Source: a virus
Lineage: Duplodnaviria; Caudoviricetes
Direction: 5' to 3' (one strand)
DNA: 61,032 bases
IMG/VR virus record: IMGVR_UViG_3300042864_000169
Location: 1 to 61,032 of that record
A program made the translations under genes and the position numbers. How positions within the stretch are numbered: position 1 is the first letter of the stretch; each line of letters begins with the position of its first letter. The notes below the pieces were generated by a model. The model was not told where the DNA came from. It saw only the letters and a list, made by a program, of their open reading frames with translations, and made no database searches. Below, one piece after another: positions 1,089-52,539 of this stretch.

Positions 1089-1254
1089 TGGTCACCTCCT
1101 CGGTGCTTACCAAGTCCCAATCACCATGACCTGAGTCAATGAAATCTGACCCGTCCATTTCCTTAGCCTTCTCCCACGCATCCTCATGGTTTTCCGCTTC
1201 TATGAGTGCGTAGACGTGCGACACACTTCGTGCCCATACCTTGTAAGTTTTCAT
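1081..1254 (-). CDS. small acidic phage protein (MKTYKV...IEAENHEDAWEKA)
   Basis: Start reassigned to ATG 1254 behind AGGAG; VEAxxxEEA-type motif common in phage early genes. Confidence 0.7.
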   Translation of the reverse strand: MKTYKVWARSVSHVYALIEAENHEDAWEKAKEMDGSDFIDSGHGDWDLVSTEEVTNG

Positions 1255-1396
1255 TGGTTCTCTCCTGTATGTTTTTTCTAACGATGTAACGAGCGTCAGG
1301 TCTGCTTGCAAACCACTTGCTCAATCCTGAGTCATCATCTTGGAGGAGACCCGCAGGGTAGCCGGTCTTGCCTCCTTGTTTAAACGTCATGTCCAT
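1184..1396 (-). CDS. hypothetical protein
   Basis: ORF track; LLQDDDSGLSKWFASRPDAR core; 3' end overlaps the next gene. Confidence 0.55.
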   Translation of the reverse strand: MDMTFKQGGKTGYPAGLLQDDDSGLSKWFASRPDARYIVRKNIQERTNENLQGMGTKCVARLRTHRSGKP

Positions 1397-1632
1397 TTCT
1401 CCACGTCTGCGACAGATTTCTCGGTCACCACAATGTTGATACTGCTGTCGTTGAATATCTCCATAGCCTGATCAACTGCCTTGGATCGGCTAGTAGCCTC
1501 AACATCTATCTGCACAAAGCCCTCTACAGCCACTGTAATGGTGTATTTGGCAGTGGGTGTACCCTCTGCCTCCCTGCGCTCATTGGCAACCCACAACGCA
1601 GAAAAATGATTGTCTAATCCTTGCATGGTCAT
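1387..1632 (-). CDS. hypothetical protein (VEATSRSKA motif, similar fold to 1081-1254)
   Basis: ORF track; AGGAGG RBS. Confidence 0.7.
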   Translation of the reverse strand: MTMQGLDNHFSALWVANERREAEGTPTAKYTITVAVEGFVQIDVEATSRSKAVDQAMEIFNDSSINIVVTEKSVADVEKWT

Positions 1633-40161: not shown

Positions 40162-41991
40162 ATGTTTACACAACCGTCCCCTGAAAAAATTGCTTCAGCA
40201 TATGTGGGCAACCCTGCGCCGTTAGCACGTAAAGTTGATCAAGATAAAAAGCAGAATGGCGGGATCCCTAGGGATCTGCGTCAGTTGATAGCTTTAAACG
40301 ACATTGCTCAGGGCAAACAATCCGCTGGGATTGACCAAGCGTTAAAGATCCCAACCAACATGCCTACTGTGGCACAGAACACTCAGCAACTAGCAGAGCA
40401 AGCTTTGCAGGCTCGTATGCTTCAGCAAGTTCGTGAGCAACAGCGTTTACAGCAAAAACCTCCTACGTTACCTCTAGGCACACCACAGCCTGAAGAACAA
40501 CCTCAAGGTCTTGATGCCTTACGCGCCAACATAGGCGAAGGCTATGCCGAAGGCGGCATTATTGGTTTTGATGGTACAAAAACTTCTTCCGTGCAAGACC
40601 CAGAAGAGAAAAAAGAAGAAAAGGCAACCTCTGCCGCCGGTGATTTTATGCGGGCAATTGCAAATGCTATAAGTAGTGGTGTTCAACGCACCGCAGATTA
40701 CGGAAAATTAAAATCTGAAAAAGAAGCCGCAGCCCCCGGATTTTTTGAATCATTAACACCAACACAACGTACCGAACGTTTAAAGCAGTTTGCTTTATTA
40801 AAATCACAGGAGGGTCAAGTGGCTGATAGCGGAGAAATTACGCCAACATACCCCAAAGCAGGCACACCTACGTTTAAAACATATGCTGCTGATTCACGTC
40901 CTAATGCCGCCGAAGAAGCTCTAGCCGCAGAAACTAGCAAGCTGTTCAATCTTGCCGCTGCGCCTAGTGCAGAAGCAGTTGCGCCTACTAAAGTTTCAGC
41001 GCCTAGGCCATCTACAACACAAGGGACGCAAGGAACTAACCGTGTAAACGTAGACAGTGCGCCTATGCCTGCTGGTTTGCAAGGTTTGGCTTCTTCACTC
41101 GCCACTCCCGGCTTGGACTATCAGCGTAAACTACTCAACCAAGATGAGAACGCAATAGCCGCAGCTAAGAGAGCTTTGTACGACAAAGAGGTTGGCGCTC
41201 GTGATCTATCCATTTATGACCGCACAGCCGCAGAACTTGAAGCACGTAAGCAGAAGTTGAATGCTCCTAAAGCGGGTTATGACGCAATGATGGAGTACTT
41301 AGAGCAGATTGCCCTAGGTGGTGGACGTACATCTGCTGAATCAGGATCTATTGGCGCTGCCCGTCAAAGAGCGTTACAAAAAGAACGTCTTTCTCAACAA
41401 GATATTCTTATGGACAAGATCCTTGAGTTGGGCGCTAAGAAGTCTGAAGCTCAGTTTGCTGAGAAGAAGGGCATGTTTGAACTTACACAAGCTGAAAAAG
41501 ATCGTGTCATCAAAGAGAAGTCAGACGCTGCCAAACAGCTTGGTTTGTCTGAGGATGAAACTCGGAAGTTGATTGAACAAGGTTTGCAAAAAGAACTTGA
41601 TCGCAAGAATGAACTGAAAAAAGCCGGTATTAGCGCATCTGCCGCTAATCGTGATGATTTGCTTGGACGTGCCCTTCTTATTAAGAAGGACAACCCAACA
41701 ATATCAATGGAAGAGGCAATTAAACGTGCCTCTGTTGCTACATACGCAGGTCAGTTAACCGCTGCTGAAGGCAAGTCTGACACCGCCAGAGATCAACGTA
41801 TTGCCAAAATTCGTGAGAACTATGGCAAAACAATGAAGTTCTTAAGCCCTAACTCTCCTTTGTATAAACGCCAACAAGCACTGATGGATCAAGAGATTGC
41901 TGACGAACGTGGTACGCCGGGTTTAAACGCATTGCCCGGCGCATCGTCATCTGGTACAGTGCCTCCACCCCCCGGATTTAGATTGAACTAA
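40162..41991 (+). CDS. internal virion/ejection protein
   Basis: Helical, YAEGGIIGF motif; precedes the giant gene. Confidence 0.6.
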   Translation: MFTQPSPEKIASAYVGNPAPLARKVDQDKKQNGGIPRDLRQLIALNDIAQGKQSAGIDQALKIPTNMPTVAQNTQQLAEQALQARMLQQVREQQRLQQKPPTLPLGTPQPEEQPQGLDALRANIGEGYAEGGIIGFDGTKTSSVQDPEEKKEEKATSAAGDFMRAIANAISSGVQRTADYGKLKSEKEAAAPGFFESLTPTQRTERLKQFALLKSQEGQVADSGEITPTYPKAGTPTFKTYAADSRPNAAEEALAAETSKLFNLAAAPSAEAVAPTKVSAPRPSTTQGTQGTNRVNVDSAPMPAGLQGLASSLATPGLDYQRKLLNQDENAIAAAKRALYDKEVGARDLSIYDRTAAELEARKQKLNAPKAGYDAMMEYLEQIALGGGRTSAESGSIGAARQRALQKERLSQQDILMDKILELGAKKSEAQFAEKKGMFELTQAEKDRVIKEKSDAAKQLGLSEDETRKLIEQGLQKELDRKNELKKAGISASAANRDDLLGRALLIKKDNPTISMEEAIKRASVATYAGQLTAAEGKSDTARDQRIAKIRENYGKTMKFLSPNSPLYKRQQALMDQEIADERGTPGLNALPGASSSGTVPPPPGFRLN

Positions 41992-41993
41992 GT

Positions 41994-44900
41994 ATGGCAC
42001 TACAGACTGCTACCAACCCAAGTACAGGTGAAACAGTTGCATTGGTTGGCAATCAGTGGTTGCCAATTACCAAAACAGCTTCTAACGATCAAGGGCAGAA
42101 AGCCTATCTAGTCAATAACCAATGGTTAGTTGATCAAGAAGAAGAGAAGAAAAAAACCGCTGGTTTCTCCCTCAAAGATCTAGCCTTGTCTTTTGGACAG
42201 GGTGTAGGCGGTGGTACGCAAGCACTTACTGACATAGCTGGTGCTGGTAACGTTGTCTCCAAAGGCTTAACGGGTCTTCAAGAAGCCGCTGGTGAGGCTA
42301 TGTCTCCTGAGCGTCAGGCTGAGATCCGTCGCCGTCAAGAGATTAAGAAGAAGGCTGAAGGCAATACACTAGAAGAGGTTAAAGCTGTTCTCGGTGGCTT
42401 TGCTGAAGCTCCTTTACAGACCCTTGCACAGGGTGCTGGCTCAATAGTTCCAATGGTTCTTGGAACTGCGTTAATGCCTGCCGCCGCTGTACCTGCCGCA
42501 GTTGCTAGATTAACTGCGATGGGTGTATCTGCTGGCACTGCCGCCAAAGTTGCCTCTTCTCTCCCCGCAGCTACTGTCGGTGCAATGATGGGCGTTGGCG
42601 GTCAAAAGGGCCAAGACTACGAGACAGTCAAGCGTGAGTTACTTGAGAAAAAGATACCTGAAGCAGAAGCAGAACGCTTGGCTCAAAAAGCCGCAGAGTA
42701 TTCTTTAGAGAACGTACCACGTCAACTTGCAAGCGGTGCGGCTGGCGCTCTTGCTGGTGGACTAGGCGTTGAATCGCTTGTTGGTCGTATAGGCAAGAAA
42801 CTACCTGAAGTCAAAGGCCCATCACTAAAGTTGCCTGAGCCAACAGTGGCACAAGCTATTGGCAGAAGTACAGCAGCCGAGGCTTTACCTGAAGGTCTTC
42901 AGTCTGCGGTTAGCACTGTCGGTACAAACGTTGCGCTTAACCAAGCTGGCGTTGAGAGAGATCTAACCCAAGGTGTATTGGCTAACGCTATAAATGACGC
43001 ATTAGTCGGTGGCATATTGGGTGCTGGAGCTTCTCCTCTCAAGTTAAAAGAGATGCGTCAGCAGTACGTGCAGGATGAATTTAAAGGCCAGCAGGAATAC
43101 CAGAAGCAACAGCAAGAAGAGATTGCAGCTAACCAAAAGAAGATTAAAGATGAACTGAGCATGACCCAGAACCCACTGGGCATGTTAACTATTGACGATC
43201 TTGGCGCGGATCTATTTAAGGTTGTTCAGCAAAATCGTGCTGATACAGGTAAGCCAGCACTCACTTCTTTTAGTTTAGATGATGTGGTTGATGCGCTGCC
43301 GGGCAAAGATAAAGCAGCAGAGTCTGCAAGTTTAAACGCAATAATCGCAGCCAAGACCGGTTACACCAACGAGGTTTACACGCCTGCGCAAGTTATTGAA
43401 GCTGCTCAAGCCAAGAACGTTGAAACAGGAACTCAAGGTTTCTCTGACTTTCTTTCTAGGACAACTGGTCTCAGTGATCCTGCTCAGATGTCTCAGCCCC
43501 AACTCCATGCGGCTGTCACTGCGCTTGGAAAGCTACCCGGGTTCACATCAACACAGTCGCTGCCAGAAGGTTTAAACGCTACCAACTACACGCCGGATCA
43601 GTTTACTCAAGCCATTGACAGTTTAAACACGCAGATGGATGTGTTGGGTAAAGATGAGCTAACGTTTAAAGAAACAACTAATGCAATAGAGACAGCCACG
43701 GGACTCAAAGGTTCTGCTGTCAATGCTTTGATTAATGATGCCGCTCGCAAGGGTGATGTTGTTACCGAAAACAAGAAAGTTAGTGTTCCCTCACGTACCA
43801 CACCTACTGGATACGGCATTTCTGAAGAGGTTGGCGCTGAACAAGAGCAGGCTACCTCCTACGAAGTTAGACGTGGCGATGAGATTCTGGACGAGCATAA
43901 AACTAAAGAATCTGCTGACCAGCAGGTTGAAGGTTTAAACAAGCTGACCGCAGAAGAGATTAAAAACATTGATGAATCTCTTAAGACGGAAGAAGCCAAG
44001 ATAAGTAAGGCCGAGAAGGAAGTCCAGAGACTTATCCTTGCAGGCAACCGCAGTACTCCAGAATTTAAGACTGCACAGGATGCTTACGAAAAGGCGACTG
44101 ATGAAGCATTCCCCCGTATTGCCGAGTTGAAGGCTAGGAAAGAGTCTTATCAGACTCCTTTAACCGTTGCTCCTATTGGCGTTACAAAAGTTAAGCCAAA
44201 GTCTTATGTAGTACGTAAAGGCGAAGGCATCCAAACCGTCAAGCAGACCCGTGAAGAAGCTGAACAGGCTATCTTTGAGGATCTATCTGACGCAGATCTT
44301 CAAAAGCTATCCAAGAAGCGTTCGCCCGCGTTGCAGAAGCGTGTAAACGCAGAGATCCAGCGTCGTGCTGCTGCGCCAACAAAAGCGGCTCCTGCGACAG
44401 CGGCAACGCCTGAGCAACAAGCTAAGTTAGACAAGCTTAAAAAAGACTTGCCAGCCATGCTGGAGCGGTTTGGCCTGAAGGATGTTGGCCTCAAGATTGT
44501 TGATGCCATTGAGGGTGGTGCTGAAGGTTCTTATGCCGCCAAGGTAATTGAGATTGCTCTGGACGCAGTTAATCCTGTGCAGACCCTGCGCCATGAAGCT
44601 ATTCATGCCTTGAAAGAACTGGGTTTCTTTACCCCCCAACAATGGGCGGCATTAGAGCGTCAGGCTAAGAACGAGTGGGTACAGAAGTATCTTAAGGATA
44701 GAAATTACCGCACAGATGACGGCAAGACTATGAGCCGTTACGAGGCTTATAAGACCCCCGGAATTGCCAGTAAAGATGGCTTGACCGAAGAAGACATTAT
44801 TGAAGAAGCCATTGCCGATGCATTTGGTGACTTTGATGCAACCAAAGCACCTCCGGGAATGCTGACTGCGTTGTTGAACAAGTTGCGTAACTTCTTCTCT

Positions 44901-47900
44901 GCGCTGCGTAGTTATTTAAACGGTCAAGGCTTCCAAACCTACAAGGATGTGTTTGCCAAGATTGAAGCGGGTGAACTTAAGGGTACTACTCCCGCCACTA
45001 CTGGCGAGGCTAAGAAAGCCCTCAAGACCGAGAAGTACGGGATGCTTAACCCCGCCATACAACCCAAGTATGAAAAGGTTTTGAACGACATCATTGATGA
45101 GATGGAAGTAACTCCTGAAGAGCTTGCTTCTACATCTTTGCTTTATCAAACTGGTAAAGCTGGTATTGAGCAGTTTGAAGGCCCAGATATTGGTAGGTTA
45201 CCTGCTGTTGTTCAACATCTACAAGACTTACGTCGTCAGTCGGGTCTGCCTTTACTTGACACAGAAAAGCCGGAAGACCGAAAGACTCTTGCTAGATTGA
45301 TGACAATTGAGGCTATGGCGGCTATCCGTTCTGGTGGCGCTAACCTTGAGTGGTATGACTCGGTCATTAACAAGACGTTGGGTATGGCTGGGCTTAAGTA
45401 CGCAGAACTCAATACAGATCCAAATGCTCGATCAGCCTTCCGGGTTGGAATGGCTATCACCTCTCAAGGTTTAAACGTTGAAGACAATCTTGCGTTTGCC
45501 ATGAAGGTTTATGACTCCTTCAGAATCAACCAGCGTTTCCCAGAAATAGGTCAAGGCGCTGACCAAGGTGCAATGGTAAGCAACTTCAAGTTGGCTAATG
45601 CATTACTTTCCGACATGGGGCCAGACCTGATGCGTCAGTTCCTTGAGACAGAGTTTACTGTTGATGAAATGCGCAGTGCTGGTTTTGACATCAAGGGTGA
45701 GTTAAAAGATGAGAAAGTTCTAGGTTCTTCCGTTTTTGGGCCAAAGATCGGATTTGGCTTCTACTCCAATTTAAACGGTAACTTTGAGCCAACAACAATG
45801 GACATGTGGTTCATGCGAACCATTGGTCGTTTAACTGGCAAGCTAAAGGACTTTGATCCTGAGCTTTACAAAGAACAGCTTGGTAAGTTTAGAAATGCTT
45901 TAAACGTCAAAGGCGACAATGGTGTCTTTGCCAATCAGTTTAATGAGGCAGACGTAGAGGCCGCAAAAACTGATGATGATGCCGCTGAAGCCTTGGCACG
46001 TAAAGTTAAGAGTGCGCATGAGCGTGACTACAAAAACAATCGCGCTGATTACAACAACAAAACAAGAGAGAAATCTAAGTTAGTTGGTGCGGCAGAGTCA
46101 ATGATTAACTCATTGGACAAGCCTAGAGATGCGCCAGCCAGTGGCTCAGAACGCAGAAACTTGCGTGATGTTGTCCGTCAAATGGTGGACATGGTTGAGA
46201 AGAAATACGGTAAGCGAGTACCGCCTGCTTCTTTGCAAGCGGCTATTTGGTATCCTGAACAAGAGTTGTACAAGGCTCTTGGTGTAAGACTGCGTGTAAC
46301 AAGTCAGAGCTACGCAGGAGCAATGGAAAAGATTCTCACGAAGGAGGGATACAATGCAGGACAACTTAGCACAGCAGCAAAATCTGGATCAAGAACAACA
46401 CAACGATTGGCTAATGCGCCAGTCGCCAAAAGAACTCAAGCAACTGGCACACAACCTTACAGAATTGGCCCGCTTGAAGCTCAACAACGGGAAGAGTTCC
46501 TTGAAAAGTACAGAACAAAAGCAGTAATTGAGCAAGAGCGTGAAACGCCACGCCGTAAGAAAGTTGTTTTTGAGGTTGCGCCAGACCCTAATAATGTTGA
46601 ACTAAGCAACCGGTGGAGAAACTTAGATCAAGTTACCCGTTTAAACATCAGTGAAAAAATAGCTCGTAGTATTGTTCGCAAGGCTATGGCTGACTTTGAT
46701 GTGGATGGCTACATCGCTCCGCAAGTTGGTAGTTATATGGATGACACCAACCCATCGTTTGCTTTGTTCCTTAACTCTGGTGACTCTGTAGAGATCTCTA
46801 AATTCATTGGCTACGCCTTGTCGCAAGACAGCATGATGGTTATTTCGCCTAAGCCAGCAAAAGGCTTGGACAAAGTCAGCGCCATCACTGTTGATTTAAA
46901 CACGCAGGATCCAGCCAAGATTGACAAGATCTATCAAGAACTGCGCAAGATTAAGGTTGACGGGGAAACGCCTATTGGTGGTCAGACCACCATGAACGGC
47001 AAGATGATTCTGTTGAATTATTCCAACGTTGACTCTAATGAGTTGGCATCATTGATTGATGATCAACTAAAGGGTGATTACAATATTTCCGTTGGAGATG
47101 TTTATTCCGCATTCCCTGAAAAAGAAAGTTACAACTATGCCAATCCGTCAGATGACCCCAGAGGAGAAAGAGGAACTATTCGGGAACGGAGTCGTTCTCT
47201 TCGGGATGAAGCCACTCGACAACTCCAAGCAGAACTCGGAGAACCCGCCGCCCAAAGAGGAAGAAGAAAGCTAAGTCTTCCGCTTGAAACTGAGGCCGCA
47301 AAGAAGTCTGAGAATCTGCGTGGGATCATTAGTGATGAGACCCTCTACAAAGTCCAAGAGGTTCTCAATACATACACTGAGAAGCCTAAGAATGTAAGCG
47401 TTACGCCTGAGCAACGTGCTAAGGCTGAACAAGCATTACTGCCTTATGTCAACAAGGCAAAAGCAATTAAGCCTAAGTTTGATCAGCAGATCAGAGACAT
47501 CGCCGCTGAGGTTGATGGCGAGGCACGTATCCCCGGACTTAAAGGCTTGGGAAGAGCCGCAGAGAAGCTTATTCTTGAGACTGATGACGGTATGGCTGGT
47601 AACCCCAAAGGTTCCGACATCATGGACTTGCTCCGTGCAACCATTGTCGTTAACAGCGAGAGTCAGATTCAACCTACGCTTGAGTTAATTAAGAAGAAGT
47701 TCCCGCAAGTTCTGCGTGTAAAGGATCGCTTTACAAAACCACAGGACACAGGCTATCGGGACATTTTGATGAACGTCAAGTTACCTAACGGTCTTGCTGT
47801 TGAGATTCAGTTAAACATCCCTGAGATGATCAAGGCTAAGACTAGCGGTCATGTGCTTTATGCAATGAGCCGTAACTTGGTTGATGGTGATCCAAAGAAG

Positions 47901-50900
47901 GCCATGCTTGATGACCTGTCTCGTGATCTTTACAGTCAAGCGTATCGCTTTGCCCAGAATGCCATATCGCCATCATCGGCAGGCTCTGCCTTGGCAAATG
48001 TTTCTGGTGGTACGGGAATATCTGGCTTGGCGGCAAAGACCACTGAGCCATCTTTGAGTTCTAAAACTGGTGTGGCATCTAGTGCCCAAACCTTAGCGCC
48101 TTCAGGAACTTTAAACATACCTGCCTCCTCTAAAGATACAAGTATAAAAGAAAGCAAGAAGAGTCTCAAGACTAATTTTGAAACTGCTGAAGAGGCAGAG
48201 AATGCTGCGTACCGCAAAGCTCCGCCTACAACGCCAGAGTTTAAACGTTTCTTTGGCAGCAGTGTTGTAAAGGAAGAAGGTCGTCCACAGGTGATGTATC
48301 ACGCAAGCATGGAAGATTTCCCTGCGTTCCGTGAGAACAGATCAATCTTTGTTTCTCCTGACCCATATTTTGTAGAAGACTTTATTCAGCGCAGGATCAA
48401 TGAATCAGGCTCATTGCAATACTTGAGCGAAGGAAACCTTAAGACAAAAACTGCAAAGATATACCCTGTGTGGGTTCGTGCGGAGAAGCCGTTTGATTAC
48501 GAAAATCCTAATCATGTACAGCAGGTGGTTGATGATGTTGCGGCAGACTTTACAAGCAAAGAAAAGGGAGGCCGCATTCAATTGGCTACCCATCTTGTTA
48601 GCCGTAAAGACTTGACCGACAAGCTGACAAATGCTCAGTGGGACTATATTGAAGATGGTCGCATTCAAGAGGCTATAAAGAAGCTTGGGTTTGATTCTTT
48701 CTACACACGAGAAGGTGGAGCCAAGAACCTTGCTCTTTACAACTCCAACCAAGTTAAGTCAGTCACAGGCAATACTGGTGAGTTTGGCGAGACTAAAGAC
48801 ATACGCTTTAGTTTAAACAAAGTAAAAGACGAAGTAGACACACTGCCTAACGGTGCGGCTATCAACGCTAGTATCAATCGCCTTGCTCCGGGCCGTGAGC
48901 AAAAAGGATACATCGAGCGTATTCTGGAATTGTTTAAACCACAAAGTGTAGATGCGCTGCGCCAGCAGTTCTTGAATCGTTACAACCAACTTGGTGTGTA
49001 TGACAAGAAAGTTGCCGAACAGATGGGTGGAGCCGCTCTCCTTGCTGACTCAAGCGCAGAATCTGCCGCCCTGATGTCAGACAATGCCGCCGCTATTGCG
49101 ACTATGGCTTGCGGTATTGAGGGTAAAGGTGGCATTCCTGTCTTTGACAAAGGCTACACAACAATCAGTAATGCCAATGGTGAGAAGGGTGTCCTAGAGA
49201 TCCTCATGCCTTTGGCTAAGAGGGGTGACCCACGTATCTACCAAACCTATCAGTTCTGGGCTGGTTCTCTACGGGGTTCCCGTCTGTTAGCTAACGGCAC
49301 AGACCACACCTACACACAGGCTGAGATAGATTACGCCAAAGAACTCTTGGTTAAGTATCCTGAGTTTGAGCAAGTCCAAAAAGATTGGATTAAATACAAC
49401 AATGGCTTGATGAACTACGCAGTAAAAACTGGAGTTCTGTCGCCTGAAAAGGCCGCAGAGTTTATGAAGTACTCTGACTACATTCCTTTCTATCGTCAGA
49501 TAGATGGGGAAAAGACTGTCGGGCCTAGACTGTTCCAAAACATCTCAGGAGTTACTCCTCCCAAGAAACTAAAGGGTCTCAAGGAAGAGCAAGACATTCC
49601 TTTTGCTGACTTCTTAGAAACCATTGTCCGTAACACGCAGTCCATCATCCAATCAGGAATGAAGAACACTGCGGCTCAACGTGCTATTGGTCAGGCCGTC
49701 TTTTTAAAGATGGCTGACAAACGACAAGATGTGTCCTACGCCCCCGGCGTTGTGACTGTCTTGGAGAACGGCAAGCCTGTTTCCTACGACGTAGCCGATC
49801 AGTTGTTCATTGATGCCGTCAAGAGTTTAAACCTACCAGAATTGCCATTCCTAAGTTTCTTTGCTGCGCCAGCAAATCTGCTCCGCAACTTGGTTACCAA
49901 AGATCCCGGCTTTATGATGGCTAACTTGATGCGTGACTCATTGTCTGCGTGGGTTACCAGCGGTGCAAAGATGACACCTATCGCCTCTACCATTGCTAAC
50001 TTTGGCAGGGCTATCGGTGGTACTGACCCTGTCTATCTTGCCTTGCGTAATGCGGGTGTGATTGGTGGTTATGAGTTTGCCGCTGGCGTTGAGAACAGCG
50101 GTGTTATTTTGGGTGAAAGCCTGCGCAGAGCCACAGGAACTCAGACAGGTACAGAGAAGGCTCTCAAGCCGTTTACAAGCCTCTGGCGCGGTCTGGAGAA
50201 GGGTACAGAGGCATCTGATGCCGCTACCCGCATGGCAGTGTACAAAGCTACGCTGGAGAAGACGGGCAACGAGGCAGAAGCTATCTACCGTGCGATGGAA
50301 GTGATGAACTTTAACCGTAAGGGTAACCTTGCCATTGTTCGTATTTTGACTGCGGCTGTGCCATTCCTTAACGCACGTATGCAGGGCTTGGATGTGTTCT
50401 ACCGTGCCGCCTTTGGCAAGATGGCTACGGCAGATGCCGCCGCTATTCAGAAATCTTTCTTTATTCGTGGTGCAACCCTCATGGCTCTTACGTCCATGTA
50501 TTGGTTCTTGACACATGATGATGAGGAATACTTAAACCAAGAGCAAGAGACAAGGGATAACAATTGGTTGTTCCCGTCAGCAGGCATCCGCATCCCAATT
50601 CCTTTTGAGGTGGGTGTCCTGTTTAAAGTCGTGCCTGAACGTATCCTTGAATATTCATTTGGTAGTGACACCGGCAAGGATATGGCTGACTCGTTTAAAC
50701 GTAACTTAATCTCTACGTTTGCGTTTAATCCAATTCCTCAGACTGTTCTGCCTTTTGTTGAGGCTCGTACAAACTACTCGTTTTTCACAATGCGTCCCAT
50801 TGTGGGACAGGGTATGGAGAACGTAGCCAAAGAGTACCAGATGGCTCCTAACACTTCAGAAGCCGCTAAGAAGCTGGGTGGAATTTTGGGTGAGTCCCCA

Positions 50901-51383
50901 ATCATTGTGGATCACATTATGAAGGGCTACACAGGATCGCTTGGTATGTATGCCATTGACCTGATTGACGCAGTCCTGTTCAGTAATGACGCATCACCTA
51001 AGCCTGCAAAACGCTTTGAGCAGATGCCCGTGATCAAACGATTCATTGTGGACAAGGAAGCCAAAGGAACTGTGACCGCTTATTACGAACTGAAGAACTC
51101 TGTAGATGAAGTGGTTCGTACCATTAATCTGTTAGAGCGCACAGGTAAAGTTGAAGACATTGAAGGCTACATGCAAAAGAATGCCGCCATGTTTGCCGCT
51201 CAAGACTACGTCAAGGCTATTGAGTCTGATATGAAGGCTCTGCGTGAGGCGTTGATACAGGTGCGTAGTTCTGACATGTCAGGCGAAGAGAAGAGGGATG
51301 CAATTAGTGAGTTGAACGAAGCGCAGAATCAACTGACATCTCAGATCAGGCTCTTTAAGAAAGAAATCTCTAAGTCACAGTAA
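41994..51383 (+). CDS. giant polyvalent ejection protein: zincin (HEAIH), HhH/DUF7178-like, unknown domain, RelA/SpoT-like synthetase, ART-like, LPD38
   Basis: LRHEAIHAL; WYD..AITSQ..GPKIG..DMWFMR; KGLGRAAEK..DLLRATI..GYRD..EIQL; YHAS..FVSPD..IYPVW..GFDS..NQVKS; MNFNRKG..VPFLNARMQG..IPIPFEVG. Confidence 0.85.
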   Translation: MALQTATNPSTGETVALVGNQWLPITKTASNDQGQKAYLVNNQWLVDQEEEKKKTAGFSLKDLALSFGQGVGGGTQALTDIAGAGNVVSKGLTGLQEAAGEAMSPERQAEIRRRQEIKKKAEGNTLEEVKAVLGGFAEAPLQTLAQGAGSIVPMVLGTALMPAAAVPAAVARLTAMGVSAGTAAKVASSLPAATVGAMMGVGGQKGQDYETVKRELLEKKIPEAEAERLAQKAAEYSLENVPRQLASGAAGALAGGLGVESLVGRIGKKLPEVKGPSLKLPEPTVAQAIGRSTAAEALPEGLQSAVSTVGTNVALNQAGVERDLTQGVLANAINDALVGGILGAGASPLKLKEMRQQYVQDEFKGQQEYQKQQQEEIAANQKKIKDELSMTQNPLGMLTIDDLGADLFKVVQQNRADTGKPALTSFSLDDVVDALPGKDKAAESASLNAIIAAKTGYTNEVYTPAQVIEAAQAKNVETGTQGFSDFLSRTTGLSDPAQMSQPQLHAAVTALGKLPGFTSTQSLPEGLNATNYTPDQFTQAIDSLNTQMDVLGKDELTFKETTNAIETATGLKGSAVNALINDAARKGDVVTENKKVSVPSRTTPTGYGISEEVGAEQEQATSYEVRRGDEILDEHKTKESADQQVEGLNKLTAEEIKNIDESLKTEEAKISKAEKEVQRLILAGNRSTPEFKTAQDAYEKATDEAFPRIAELKARKESYQTPLTVAPIGVTKVKPKSYVVRKGEGIQTVKQTREEAEQAIFEDLSDADLQKLSKKRSPALQKRVNAEIQRRAAAPTKAAPATAATPEQQAKLDKLKKDLPAMLERFGLKDVGLKIVDAIEGGAEGSYAAKVIEIALDAVNPVQTLRHEAIHALKELGFFTPQQWAALERQAKNEWVQKYLKDRNYRTDDGKTMSRYEAYKTPGIASKDGLTEEDIIEEAIADAFGDFDATKAPPGMLTALLNKLRNFFSALRSYLNGQGFQTYKDVFAKIEAGELKGTTPATTGEAKKALKTEKYGMLNPAIQPKYEKVLNDIIDEMEVTPEELASTSLLYQTGKAGIEQFEGPDIGRLPAVVQHLQDLRRQSGLPLLDTEKPEDRKTLARLMTIEAMAAIRSGGANLEWYDSVINKTLGMAGLKYAELNTDPNARSAFRVGMAITSQGLNVEDNLAFAMKVYDSFRINQRFPEIGQGADQGAMVSNFKLANALLSDMGPDLMRQFLETEFTVDEMRSAGFDIKGELKDEKVLGSSVFGPKIGFGFYSNLNGNFEPTTMDMWFMRTIGRLTGKLKDFDPELYKEQLGKFRNALNVKGDNGVFANQFNEADVEAAKTDDDAAEALARKVKSAHERDYKNNRADYNNKTREKSKLVGAAESMINSLDKPRDAPASGSERRNLRDVVRQMVDMVEKKYGKRVPPASLQAAIWYPEQELYKALGVRLRVTSQSYAGAMEKILTKEGYNAGQLSTAAKSGSRTTQRLANAPVAKRTQATGTQPYRIGPLEAQQREEFLEKYRTKAVIEQERETPRRKKVVFEVAPDPNNVELSNRWRNLDQVTRLNISEKIARSIVRKAMADFDVDGYIAPQVGSYMDDTNPSFALFLNSGDSVEISKFIGYALSQDSMMVISPKPAKGLDKVSAITVDLNTQDPAKIDKIYQELRKIKVDGETPIGGQTTMNGKMILLNYSNVDSNELASLIDDQLKGDYNISVGDVYSAFPEKESYNYANPSDDPRGERGTIRERSRSLRDEATRQLQAELGEPAAQRGRRKLSLPLETEAAKKSENLRGIISDETLYKVQEVLNTYTEKPKNVSVTPEQRAKAEQALLPYVNKAKAIKPKFDQQIRDIAAEVDGEARIPGLKGLGRAAEKLILETDDGMAGNPKGSDIMDLLRATIVVNSESQIQPTLELIKKKFPQVLRVKDRFTKPQDTGYRDILMNVKLPNGLAVEIQLNIPEMIKAKTSGHVLYAMSRNLVDGDPKKAMLDDLSRDLYSQAYRFAQNAISPSSAGSALANVSGGTGISGLAAKTTEPSLSSKTGVASSAQTLAPSGTLNIPASSKDTSIKESKKSLKTNFETAEEAENAAYRKAPPTTPEFKRFFGSSVVKEEGRPQVMYHASMEDFPAFRENRSIFVSPDPYFVEDFIQRRINESGSLQYLSEGNLKTKTAKIYPVWVRAEKPFDYENPNHVQQVVDDVAADFTSKEKGGRIQLATHLVSRKDLTDKLTNAQWDYIEDGRIQEAIKKLGFDSFYTREGGAKNLALYNSNQVKSVTGNTGEFGETKDIRFSLNKVKDEVDTLPNGAAINASINRLAPGREQKGYIERILELFKPQSVDALRQQFLNRYNQLGVYDKKVAEQMGGAALLADSSAESAALMSDNAAAIATMACGIEGKGGIPVFDKGYTTISNANGEKGVLEILMPLAKRGDPRIYQTYQFWAGSLRGSRLLANGTDHTYTQAEIDYAKELLVKYPEFEQVQKDWIKYNNGLMNYAVKTGVLSPEKAAEFMKYSDYIPFYRQIDGEKTVGPRLFQNISGVTPPKKLKGLKEEQDIPFADFLETIVRNTQSIIQSGMKNTAAQRAIGQAVFLKMADKRQDVSYAPGVVTVLENGKPVSYDVADQLFIDAVKSLNLPELPFLSFFAAPANLLRNLVTKDPGFMMANLMRDSLSAWVTSGAKMTPIASTIANFGRAIGGTDPVYLALRNAGVIGGYEFAAGVENSGVILGESLRRATGTQTGTEKALKPFTSLWRGLEKGTEASDAATRMAVYKATLEKTGNEAEAIYRAMEVMNFNRKGNLAIVRILTAAVPFLNARMQGLDVFYRAAFGKMATADAAAIQKSFFIRGATLMALTSMYWFLTHDDEEYLNQEQETRDNNWLFPSAGIRIPIPFEVGVLFKVVPERILEYSFGSDTGKDMADSFKRNLISTFAFNPIPQTVLPFVEARTNYSFFTMRPIVGQGMENVAKEYQMAPNTSEAAKKLGGILGESPIIVDHIMKGYTGSLGMYAIDLIDAVLFSNDASPKPAKRFEQMPVIKRFIVDKEAKGTVTAYYELKNSVDEVVRTINLLERTGKVEDIEGYMQKNAAMFAAQDYVKAIESDMKALREALIQVRSSDMSGEEKRDAISELNEAQNQLTSQIRLFKKEISKSQ
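46354..46527 (+). CDS. nested +1-frame 57-aa ORF inside the giant gene (candidate antitoxin)
   Basis: AAGGAGG 6 nt before ATG; lies in the linker right after the HhH-like domain. Confidence 0.55.
   Translation: MQDNLAQQQNLDQEQHNDWLMRQSPKELKQLAHNLTELARLKLNNGKSSLKSTEQKQ
47137..47274 (+). CDS. nested +1-frame 45-aa acidic ORF (candidate antitoxin)
   Basis: MPIRQMTPEEKEELFGNGVVLFGMKP...; host frame becomes an Arg-rich linker; RBS weak. Confidence 0.45.
   Translation: MPIRQMTPEEKEELFGNGVVLFGMKPLDNSKQNSENPPPKEEEES
47936..48118 (-). CDS. nested antisense 60-aa ORF after the RelA/SpoT domain (candidate antitoxin)
   Basis: GAGGAGG RBS, own promoter; host frame is a Ser/Gly-rich linker over this span. 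Confidence 0.7.
   Translation of the reverse strand: MFKVPEGAKVWALDATPVLELKDGSVVFAAKPDIPVPPETFAKAEPADDGDMAFWAKRYA
48141..48169 (-). promoter_or_regulatory. antisense internal promoter TTGAGA-N17-TATACT
   Basis: 5/6 match at both boxes, 17-bp spacer, about 10 nt upstream of the GAGGAGG RBS. Confidence 0.7.
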
Positions 51384-51657
51384 GATGACCCCCCTCAAAG
51401 AGCCATCCAATGGTTCTGCGATGGGCTTCATCCCAGATTTCTTTCCGGGCTTCCTTGTTTAAACTCTTGCCTTGGTCAATATCCGCGTGGCAGGAAAAAC
51501 ATAACGCAGCGATGCGATAGTCGTGGGCTTTGATGCCCATACCCTTTCCATCCTTTTGTTGATTGGAATGGGAGGCGACCACCGTGCCATCCTGCGCCCC
51601 GCAGATCTGACATGGTGATTCCCGCACAATCTCAAGTAGTTTCTTATTCCGGTACAT
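51370..51657 (-). CDS. DUF1364/DUF968-like HNH-type Zn protein
   Basis: PCQICG...VVASHSN..GKGMGIK.HD...LCFSCH. Confidence 0.8.
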   Translation of the reverse strand: MYRNKKLLEIVRESPCQICGAQDGTVVASHSNQQKDGKGMGIKAHDYRIAALCFSCHADIDQGKSLNKEARKEIWDEAHRRTIGWLFEGGHLTVT

Positions 51658-51856
51658 CTTGCTTTGCCAAAAAGTTAATGTAACGGGCTATTTCATGTCC
51701 GGTGTAGTCGATGTCCTTGTAACCTGCAAACCTTGCTGCAAGACGTTTAAACACAGCCTGCTGGGCTGCCGTCCAAACTTCGTAACTCCAACCTCCGTCA
51801 TCTTCAAAGGCTTTACTGCCAATGAAGTCACAGTATTCCTTTTTGCATTCGTTCAT
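51644..51856 (-). CDS. hypothetical protein
   Basis: ORF track; overlapping neighbours. Confidence 0.6.
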   Translation of the reverse strand: MNECKKEYCDFIGSKAFEDDGGWSYEVWTAAQQAVFKRLAARFAGYKDIDYTGHEIARYINFLAKQDVPE

Positions 51857-52013
51857 TCTGATCCTTGTAATGTTGTATGGGAAGTTTAGCTTTTTGTTTA
51901 ACCAACTTCCTTAGCCAATCAGCCCCACCAAGATCTAAAAACATCAGCCATTCAACGTCTGACATCCTTACTTGCCTGCCTTTTAATGGCATGGGAGGTT
52001 TAGGTCTAGGCAT
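51828..52013 (-). CDS. small ribbon-helix-helix-like DNA-binding protein
   Basis: MPRPKP...QVRMSDVEW...LGGADWLR. Confidence 0.65.
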   Translation of the reverse strand: MPRPKPPMPLKGRQVRMSDVEWLMFLDLGGADWLRKLVKQKAKLPIQHYKDQNERMQKGIL

Positions 52014-52191
52014 TCTTTGGCCTCCGTGTTGCTCTAAGCGTCCAGCACCCAGCGCAGTACCATCTGTTTAAACCCATTTGGATACCGCCTTCTGGTGGTT
52101 TCTGCTGCGTACATTTATCACACTGTTTAAACTGGTGTGTGCTGGGTGGCATCCCATTTAAATCTAACTGTTGTTTTACAAACCCATTCAC
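52006..52191 (-). CDS. small Zn-ribbon protein
   Basis: CDKC...KPPEGG...RWYCAGCW. Confidence 0.65.
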   Translation of the reverse strand: MNGFVKQQLDLNGMPPSTHQFKQCDKCTQQKPPEGGIQMGLNRWYCAGCWTLRATRRPKNA

Positions 52192-52388
52192 TTCTTCATG
52201 CTCCGTACATAAGCGGCAAAACTTGCCGAGGTGTCTCCACCGTTTTTCATTTGGTCAAACTCCTTAGCCACCTCTTCTAGGGTGTTGTTCCTGATCTGAT
52301 TGGTTACAGGATCAAGTTGCTTTAGGATCATCTGCCTCTTGCGCCACCCTAGTGCCTTCTCCCATATGTTTAAACTTGGTTCGCTCAT
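52188..52388 (-). CDS. hypothetical protein (RNNTLEEVAKEF...SFAAYVRSMK)
   Basis: Start moved to ATG 52388. Confidence 0.65.
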   Translation of the reverse strand: MSEPSLNIWEKALGWRKRQMILKQLDPVTNQIRNNTLEEVAKEFDQMKNGGDTSASFAAYVRSMKK

Positions 52389-52539
52389 TGTTTGCCTTTC
52401 TGTATTCCAATACTTCGTTGAGTAAACGTTCCATCTCATCAGCCGCCATCAAATGAAATGGGCTGATCGGTTTGTGGCTTGCCATTGAACGCATCATGCC
52501 GATGGTTTGTCTTGCCGTGCCTTCACTTAGCTTTCTCAT
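52312..52539 (-). CDS. hypothetical protein
   Basis: ORF track; AADEMERL motif. Confidence 0.55.
   Translation of the reverse strand: MRKLSEGTARQTIGMMRSMASHKPISPFHLMAADEMERLLNEVLEYRKANNERTKFKHMGEGTRVAQEADDPKAT

Follow-up and report, generated by a model that had tools for sequence, protein, structure and literature searches.

Can a working gene lie hidden on the opposite strand of a phage gene for a giant multidomain protein, and could its product hold in check the toxin-like domain encoded beside it? The question is raised by a short minus-strand open reading frame (ORF), preceded by promoter-like and Shine-Dalgarno-like (SD) motifs, in the IMG/VR virus record IMGVR_UViG_3300042864_000169. 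The stretch analysed, referred to below as the window, comprises positions 1 to 61,032 of this record, a 61-kb sequence of an aquatic phage rated 98% complete. The ORF is located at the C-terminal end or linker of a RelA/SpoT module similar to Tas1, which is itself one part of a giant polyvalent protein. Our analyses indicated that the minus-strand ORF is probably a real gene. To the full statement, that it is a nested antisense immunity or antitoxin gene for the Tas1-like effector module, we give a probability of about 0.6.

A check of the sequence confirmed all the minus-strand motifs described in the original prediction, which had been made from the letters of the window; TTGAGA-N17-TATACT, GAGGAGG, the ATG at 48118, the 60-amino-acid (aa) ORF and its peptide were exact. 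The unit and the surroundings in which it lies are composed as follows.

48169-48164, minus strand: -35 hexamer TTGAGA (sequence; promoter scan)
48146-48141, minus strand: -10 hexamer TATACT, after a 17-nt spacer from the -35 hexamer and ending 22 nt before the ATG
48130-48124, minus strand: SD-like motif GAGGAGG, 10 nt after TATACT and 5 nt before the ATG
48118-47936, minus strand: nested antisense ORF, ATG at 48118-48116, 60 codons, stop TGA at 47938-47936
41994..51383, plus strand: giant polyvalent protein gene, 3129 aa (ORF list, Pfam, 85 homologous giant proteins)
47271..47951, plus strand: RelA/SpoT (Tas1-like) module, bounded by K-x-S-L motifs (Pfam, phmmer, AlphaFold 2 (AF2), Foldseek)
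~47607-47849, plus strand: RelA_SpoT, PF04607 (Pfam E 1e-6)

In the ORF list the 60-aa ORF appears as the ATG-initiated part of a 93-aa ORF with a TTG start (47936..48217). The whole minus-strand unit is enclosed by the 3129-aa plus-strand ORF, which had been omitted from the original prediction; the ORF had been placed there behind a RelA/SpoT domain, and it does lie just beyond the Pfam match. A scan of 41000-52500 detected no terminator-like site on the minus strand after the 60 codons, so that transcription would continue, antisense, into the part that codes for the toxin. Such a transcript would be complementary to the polyvalent mRNA, and with no terminator-like site after the ORF an added antisense-RNA effect, as in type I toxin-antitoxin systems, is possible.

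On a single sequence, chance can go a long way towards producing such a unit. The antisense promoter was the sole 10/12 match in 41000-52500. This region is depleted in sigma-70-like matches (4 at 9/12 or better vs. 11.2 +/- 3.3 in shuffles), and the depletion in and around the giant gene makes the lone strong minus-strand match stand out more. The whole window, on both strands, contains 7 promoter matches of at least 10/12 and 36 units of SD, start codon and ORF of at least 60 aa, and the coincidences of promoter, SD and ORF expected per window amount to ~0.12 for ORFs of at least 60 aa (0.15 for at least 50). The earlier argument that promoter, ribosome-binding site and ORF are unlikely together by chance fails, at ~0.12, on one sequence. 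The ten longest stop-to-stop stretches in two antisense frames of the giant gene measured 76-197 and 69-120 codons. In the sense frame, 47936 falls on a third codon position, so that the small ORF and the sense frame share their wobble positions. An antisense stop in this frame requires a Tyr codon, or a T-ending codon before His or Gln, and the Ser/Ala/Gly/Thr-rich sense stretch has few codons that give antisense stops. With shared wobble and a stop-poor sense sequence, conservation in one 90%-identical relative (L002) proves little. The single-sequence argument for an antisense gene is weak; the comparative evidence makes it strong.

For this comparison, a region search yielded 85 homologous giant proteins, the RelA/SpoT C-terminal parts were aligned, and 22 loci, 6 from viral and 16 from metagenome contigs, were compared. 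A tblastn search with the 60-aa peptide gave matches in 20 of the 22 loci in addition to the window, each starting at an ATG (Met). Homologous loci lacking the ORF had been named in advance as the finding that would speak against the gene, and the peptide search next to other RelA/SpoT domains as a way to check it; the ORF is present in these 20 loci, and the search yielded 13 distinct copies embedded in polyvalent genes, with sense identity to the window ranging from 96% down to 48%. All 13 distinct RelA/SpoT modules of this clade carry the small ORF, whatever domain follows. In the homologues the ORF is kept where the RelA/SpoT module precedes ART or other domains, and those with an ART module but without a RelA/SpoT module have no antisense element. 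The gene is therefore linked to RelA/SpoT and not to the neighbouring domain. A short K-x-S-L/I-R/K motif separates the modules of these giant proteins; the RelA/SpoT module spans the stretch between the junction motifs at ~47250 and ~48180, which wholly contains the small gene, its SD and its -10 hexamer, the -35 hexamer overlapping the sense S-L-K junction motif. Even L007 and L008, the two loci where tblastn found nothing (31% RelA/SpoT identity, high G+C), contain an antisense ORF whose N-terminal part has a related motif, weak evidence in high-G+C DNA.

The signals upstream of the ORF were also traced across the embedded copies. An SD-like motif is present 4-6 nt upstream of the ATG in all 13, and it is kept even though the sense residues at this place vary by lineage (ASS, ASG, SP, PP). 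TATACT lies exactly 22 nt upstream of the ATG in 12 of the 13 copies, L022 being the exception, and TTGAG[AG] with a 17-nt spacer was found in 10; lineages without a good -35 hexamer (L018, L005/6) have TG-n-TATACT, an extended -10. In the sense frame TATACT corresponds to the codon pair AGT-ATA, which is expected in ~3% of Ser-Ile pairs, given the codon usage of the polyvalent gene (AGT 21% of Ser, ATA 14% of Ile). This rare pair is kept in five of six lineage groups despite near-saturated synonymous sites. When codon identity was scored at same-residue positions in pairs from different lineage groups, it reached 0.76-0.83 over 48081-48170 vs. 0.33-0.39 in the RelA/SpoT domain. The body of the small ORF gave 0.37-0.57; in the later modules the baseline is higher (0.5-0.7), for which recent module exchange is the probable cause.

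Selection on the small ORF was assessed in the 13 embedded copies with a test modelled on published ones for overlapping genes. All differences, possible as well as observed, were classed as synonymous (S) or nonsynonymous (N) in the polyvalent frame (first letter) and in the alternative frame (second letter), with a bootstrap over codons. In the small ORF, SN/SS was 0.47 (0.28-0.69) and NN/NS 0.45 (0.30-0.70); the polyvalent frame over the same stretch was weakly constrained (NS/SS 0.69, 0.40-1.03). As a control for mutation bias, the same frame was scanned over 3.3 kb in 75 segments of 60 codons. The five lowest SN/SS values (0.32-0.58) came from the five segments spanning 47907-48260, all others being at least 0.72, and the two lowest NN/NS values (0.52 and 0.53) also fell at the small ORF. 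Alternative frames (-,0) and (+,2) at the small ORF gave SN/SS of at least 0.96, and in the remaining two the site counts are too few to judge. Purifying selection acts in the antisense frame at this place. The ORF has the properties of an embedded antisense overlapping gene, namely a location wholly inside an ORF of the opposite strand and purifying selection in its own frame. Another long antisense ORF, 48411-48752 on the minus strand (113 aa), showed no constraint (SN/SS 1.33, NN/NS 0.98); a further one in the giant gene, 49938-50516 on the minus strand (192 aa), lies beyond the selection alignment.

Homologues of the small protein were also found outside polyvalent genes, and these free-standing copies, with no RelA/SpoT gene in their +/-1.5-kb flanks, had been missed by the original prediction. 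Stops on both sides close the sense-equivalent frame in L019/L020/L021, L024 and L023. In L019/L020/L021 and L024 the small ORF is a gene by itself of 62-70 aa, L024 having two copies of which the second is partial in tblastn, and in L023 it makes up the C-terminal end of a 200-aa ORF. At the DNA level, L019 is homologous to the window over 47950-48118 only, within the small ORF; homology with free-standing copies starts at the ATG and stops near the ORF end. In every tblastx comparison the small-ORF frame was better conserved than the polyvalent frame (79.7% vs. 74.0%, 71.2% vs. 61.8%, and ~69-71% vs. ~59-60%). The three free-standing types are each closest to a different embedded lineage, and in their flanks no RelA/SpoT similarity was detected at E<=10.

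Predicted proteins point to the same family. A set of 5.8 billion proteins contains 8 clusters of the small protein, seven of them of 61-65 aa with the same Met-Phe start. A profile search of 1.84 billion representatives gave 16 matches at E<=0.001. Eleven comprise nine proteins of 62-116 aa and two longer ones, of 167 and 232 aa, the 232-aa protein having the small-protein domain at its N-terminus; the other five are giant repetitive proteins with 6-13 short stretches each and are probably spurious. No Pfam family matches these proteins, a tblastn search of the phage collection with the peptide came back empty at E<=10, and none of the 42 pattern matches from a profile scan of genome contigs with the small-protein alignment was confirmed.

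What would such a protein act on? The best PDB sequence match of the RelA/SpoT module (phmmer) is Tas1 (6ox6_A, E 6.6e-4), the (p)ppApp-synthetase toxin of the Pseudomonas aeruginosa type VI secretion system (T6SS). The AF2 model of the module, with a predicted local distance difference test (pLDDT) score of 91.6, again had 6ox6_A as its best Foldseek match (E 2.3e-9, TM 0.61/0.71), followed by an exported small alarmone synthetase and Rel/SAS enzymes; 75 PDB matches were obtained at E<=0.001, those listed being RelA/SpoT-family synthetases. Residues K91, R95, K99, D119, R122, K151, E178, and Q180 do not vary among the 12 modules compared, and these residues presumably belong to the nucleotide-binding and catalytic motifs of RelA/SpoT synthetases. 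A synthetase fold with conserved motif residues places the module with the toxSAS/Tas1-like folds.

Prediction of a complex between the module and the small protein gave interface scores (ipSAE) of 0.89, 0.89, and 0.88 vs. 0.00 for the best of three controls. Of 80 solved complexes 58 attained the mark applied, as did 2 of 110 mismatched pairs, a calibration that holds roughly here, custom alignments having been used for the complex. The runs agreed in at least 95% of contacts, and the pLDDT of the small protein was 93-94 in the complex vs. 69 alone. Predicted contacts include D116-D119 and L148-R153 on the module side, and L13-T16, F28-K31, and the acidic loop D48-D51 with F54 on the peptide side; the contacted module stretches include residues invariant in 12/12 modules. 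In this model the small protein would bind the module over the catalytic cleft, a mode of binding that the model supports rather than demonstrates. The pLDDT-69 model of the small protein alone matched nothing in the PDB at E<=0.001 with Foldseek and reached Z 3.0 at best with VIA-align; a PDB sequence profile returned nothing below E 1. No similarity to the Tis1, pZFD, PanA, or SAH antitoxin domains was detected by Pfam, the PDB profile or the fold searches with this model.

In the light of these data, we propose that 48118-47936 is a protein-coding gene placed antisense in the linker of the RelA/SpoT module of a virion-delivered effector. We infer that it could be transcribed and translated from signals of its own: with a sigma-70-type promoter and an SD, transcription by host RNA polymerase would be possible apart from the late plus-strand structural operon. 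Its 60-residue product would bind the Tas1-like synthetase domain encoded just upstream on the other strand, cover the catalytic cleft and so keep the enzyme inactive, acting where the effector is made or after the effector has done its job. As the gene lies in the module's own linker, toxin and inhibitor would stay together when modules shuffle between polyvalent proteins. A small protein genetically linked to the toxin-like module, as in effector-immunity and type II toxin-antitoxin pairs, is encoded at this locus. The original prediction envisaged a host-driven antitoxin made immediately after entry. The antitoxin idea is strengthened by computation (conserved ORF, SD and -10 hexamer, frame-specific selection, linkage, ipSAE of 0.89, and a Tas1-like domain); as for its timing, expression early after injection and late in the producing cell are both compatible with the data.

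The free-standing copies may have a function of their own or may be captured "orphan" immunity genes. More tentatively, and with somewhat less than even confidence in the two parts taken jointly, we suggest that polyvalent effectors may carry toxin-immunity cassettes, in which an antisense immunity gene lies in the linker behind a host-type promoter and is shuffled intact, and that bacteria, prophages or satellites may capture the same gene as free-standing orphan immunity against the injected effector.

Among the other explanations, the one that survives best holds that the small protein is real and is not an inhibitor, serving instead as a chaperone, a packaging adaptor or an activator of the RelA/SpoT domain, or doing a separate job and being merely carried. 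The free-standing copies beside unrelated genes (type I restriction-modification and M48 peptidase genes in L024, a MerR-type regulator in L019), with flanks free of RelA/SpoT, would fit such a role. So would the L023 fusion to another small-protein family that also occurs separately, and the lack of similarity to known toxSAS antitoxin domains. We nevertheless regard this explanation as unlikely: the predicted interface covers the conserved active-site motifs and not a peripheral surface, linkage of the ORF with the RelA/SpoT module is strict among polyvalent genes, and each free-standing copy is nearest one embedded lineage, as for captured orphan immunity genes.

An element acting at the DNA or RNA level, such as the promoter of a regulatory antisense RNA aimed at the polyvalent mRNA or a recombination junction of modules, with the ORF incidental, appeared improbable to us. 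ATG and SD stand at fixed spacing in 13/13 copies, the constraint is specific to one frame, homology to the free-standing copies runs from the ATG to near the stop, gene callers report proteins of 61-65 aa with the same start, and the peptide is confidently docked, in prediction, on the neighbouring module. These points outweigh what an element of this kind would explain, namely that synonymous-site conservation is strongest over the promoter, SD and start (48081-48170) and falls to 0.37-0.57 in the ORF body, that lineages swap modules (P0022 has 67% identity upstream of the element and is identical downstream of it), and that no minus-strand terminator-like site follows the ORF.

A chance by-product, in which a linker poor in Tyr, His, and Gln codons keeps the antisense frame open and the signals are inherited coincidences, is already disfavoured and highly improbable: the ~0.12-0.15 coincidences expected per 61-kb window, the many antisense ORFs of like length in the giant gene and the need for Tyr, or for a T-ending codon before His or Gln, to make a stop would allow for it, and opposed to it are a selection signal unique to place and frame, an SD kept through differing sense residues, the rare AGT-ATA pair kept in 5/6 lineage groups, a free-standing gene family and a complex prediction that passes (0.89 vs. 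0.00).

Several observations weigh against an antisense immunity gene. The shared wobble provides open frames, and apparent amino-acid conservation comes partly free. The selection counts are uncorrected, pairwise, from related sequences and near saturation (pSS ~0.6), so that the direction of the signal is reliable and its size is not. A motif in the sense linker is conserved down to 43% identity. This motif, E-P-S-x-S ... T-G ... A-P-x-G at 47990-48110 on the plus strand (residues ~2015-2040), mirrors the best-conserved, N-terminal half of the small protein, and which of the two frames drives it has been addressed statistically only. Conservation of the -35 hexamer is not independent of the sense protein, owing to its overlap with the sense junction motif. 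Among the embedded copies, L022 has no clear promoter match and L004 has a stop two codons early, and the free-standing copies in L019 and L024 have no SD-like motif. That the flanks of the free-standing copies are free of RelA/SpoT suggests that the small protein may act independently of that domain. The module would be toxic by analogy with Tas1 only, the monomer model at pLDDT 69 is mediocre, and the complex was predicted from the custom alignments mentioned above. RNA-library contigs of relatives (85-99% alike), from four metatranscriptome runs of the 21 runs with contigs in Logan, cover parts of 47000-48510, including 47949-48152; these contigs carry no strand, start, ends or level and may stem from DNA carry-over, and we drew no conclusion from them.

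The polyvalent gene closes the plus-strand structural block of the window. It encodes a giant multidomain protein in which, besides RelA_SpoT, two further domains typical of phage-type polyvalent proteins were recognized.

Residues 2094-2264 of the polyvalent protein, plus strand: ART-PolyVal, PF18760 (Pfam E 1.2e-11)
Residues 2843-3014 of the polyvalent protein, plus strand: LPD38, PF18857 (Pfam E 5.3e-35)

The large terminase of the phage is closest to those of phage DSL-LC04, phage 023Pt_psg01, and Pelagibacter phages HTVC027P and HTVC023P (51-58% identity). A nucleotide search of the phage collection with 46500-49500 gave no match, and a Bordetella phage was the sole member of that collection to share the RelA/SpoT part (36%). 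The junction motifs at ~47250, at ~48170-48180 and after the ART domain read RKLSLPL, KKSLKT, and DIRFSLNK, respectively, and in 29 homologues the K/R-x-S-L/I-R/K motif is also found where the ART module begins; the motif may serve proteolytic processing or mark a junction for recombination. The ART modules (48180-49000 compared with P0022/P0021 and loci L013-L016) have been exchanged between lineages, and P0022, with 67% identity over the RelA/SpoT part, is identical from the antisense element onwards. The polyvalent genes of this clade are mosaic. Inverted and direct repeats between the two flanks of the RelA/SpoT module are only short and chance-like, and a miniature inverted-repeat transposable element (MITE)-like element with terminal repeats was dropped as a candidate on this ground.

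The settings of the free-standing copies differ from one another. L024 carries two tandem copies ~40 nt apart (1175-1546, minus strand); upstream of them are a fragment of a type I restriction subunit and a gene for an M48/DUF45-like peptidase, a defence-island-like setting. In L019 (1-2883) a free-standing small-gene pair lies beside a MerR-type metal regulator and an HMA-domain gene, and the zinc-finger/excisionase-like ORF that comes next hints at the border of an integrated element. The partner in this pair is an 83-aa protein (L019 1472-1723), the divergent neighbour of the small ORF and the representative of a second family, which occurs free-standing, forms 8 clusters of 69-88 aa and was found on 38 contigs; in the 200-aa ORF of L023 it is fused with the small ORF. 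Two +1-frame ORFs in the window, 47134-47274 and 46354-46527 (both plus strand), resemble its N- and C-terminal halves. Synonymous-site identity is raised at both (0.62-0.74), the selection test there being noisy, with too few doubly synonymous sites. These ORFs may represent a further nested gene of the same system.

If our reading is correct, the locus would provide a clear functional antisense gene-in-gene in a phage, with interacting products, whereas for most of the antisense overlapping genes proposed so far no function is known. It would be the first immunity partner for a polyvalent-protein domain and would explain how a Tas1-like toxin can be made and packaged without self-poisoning, or how it is switched off after entry. 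The product would define a new, unannotated small-protein family inhibiting alarmone-synthetase toxins, and its free-standing copies may shield bacteria from phage-injected effectors. The "linkers" of giant mosaic proteins, then, can conceal genes that standard annotation discards.

The locus combines traits of several known systems. In the survey of polyvalent proteins by Iyer et al. (2017, PMC5512222), RelA/SpoT is listed as a phage-type domain, and the gene in the window shares with those proteins the defining ART-PolyVal and LPD38 domains. The words "antisense" and "overlapping" have 0 occurrences in the main text of PMC5512222, and the portion of it considered here describes no immunity partner for polyvalent effector domains. 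Toxic small alarmone synthetase (toxSAS) toxin-antitoxin systems (FaRel2/ATfaRel2, CapRel, PhRel) are alike in that, according to passages of PMC11782079, a small domain blocks the substrate site of a toxin with the RelA/SpoT fold. Passages of the same article describe Tis1 and Tis1-like domains as blocking the acceptor site of (pp)pApp-producing toxSAS and pZFD antitoxins as blocking the donor ATP site, and the cleft-covering mode predicted here would be of the same general kind. Phage-encoded toxSAS modules also exist, as indicated in parts of PMC11782079 and PMC7229694. Those systems are co-directional bicistronic operons or fusions, unlike the antisense nested arrangement seen here; their antitoxin domains are pZFD, Tis1-like, PanA or hydrolases, whereas the present protein belongs to no Pfam family, and the toxin-like domain found here is a single module within a protein of 3129 aa.

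Another close counterpart is the Tas1-Tis1 pair, in which a delivered alarmone synthetase meets a small protein on its nucleotide-binding cleft, a contact that is predicted in our case. Tis1 is encoded by a separate downstream gene, whereas the partner found here is nested antisense in the effector ORF; the 60-aa protein has no detected sequence or fold similarity to Tis1 (pLDDT-69 model), and delivery is by the T6SS there and would be by the phage virion here. The listed titles and abstracts on phage toxSAS antitoxins, phage antisense overlapping genes, and Tas1/Tis1 immunity contained nothing like the nested gene. The embedded antisense genes reported for bacteria (E. coli O157:H7, P. aeruginosa) are likewise ORFs lying wholly in a gene of the opposite strand, with their own promoter and ribosome-binding site and under purifying selection. 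The present case differs in that the two products are predicted to interact and in that free-standing copies exist, so that it is not a lineage-restricted de novo ORF.

Same-strand nested small genes such as Rz1 in Rz and comS in srfA do not encode immunity proteins. In the operons of pore-forming colicins, the immunity gene is encoded on the strand opposite to the toxin operon, runs counter to it from a constitutive promoter of its own, and does not overlap the toxin ORF. The gene described here resembles colicin immunity in being oriented against the toxin operon and differs in overlapping the toxin ORF itself. In our view the locus is best placed with effector-immunity pairs, of which it would be a form with an unusual gene-in-gene architecture.

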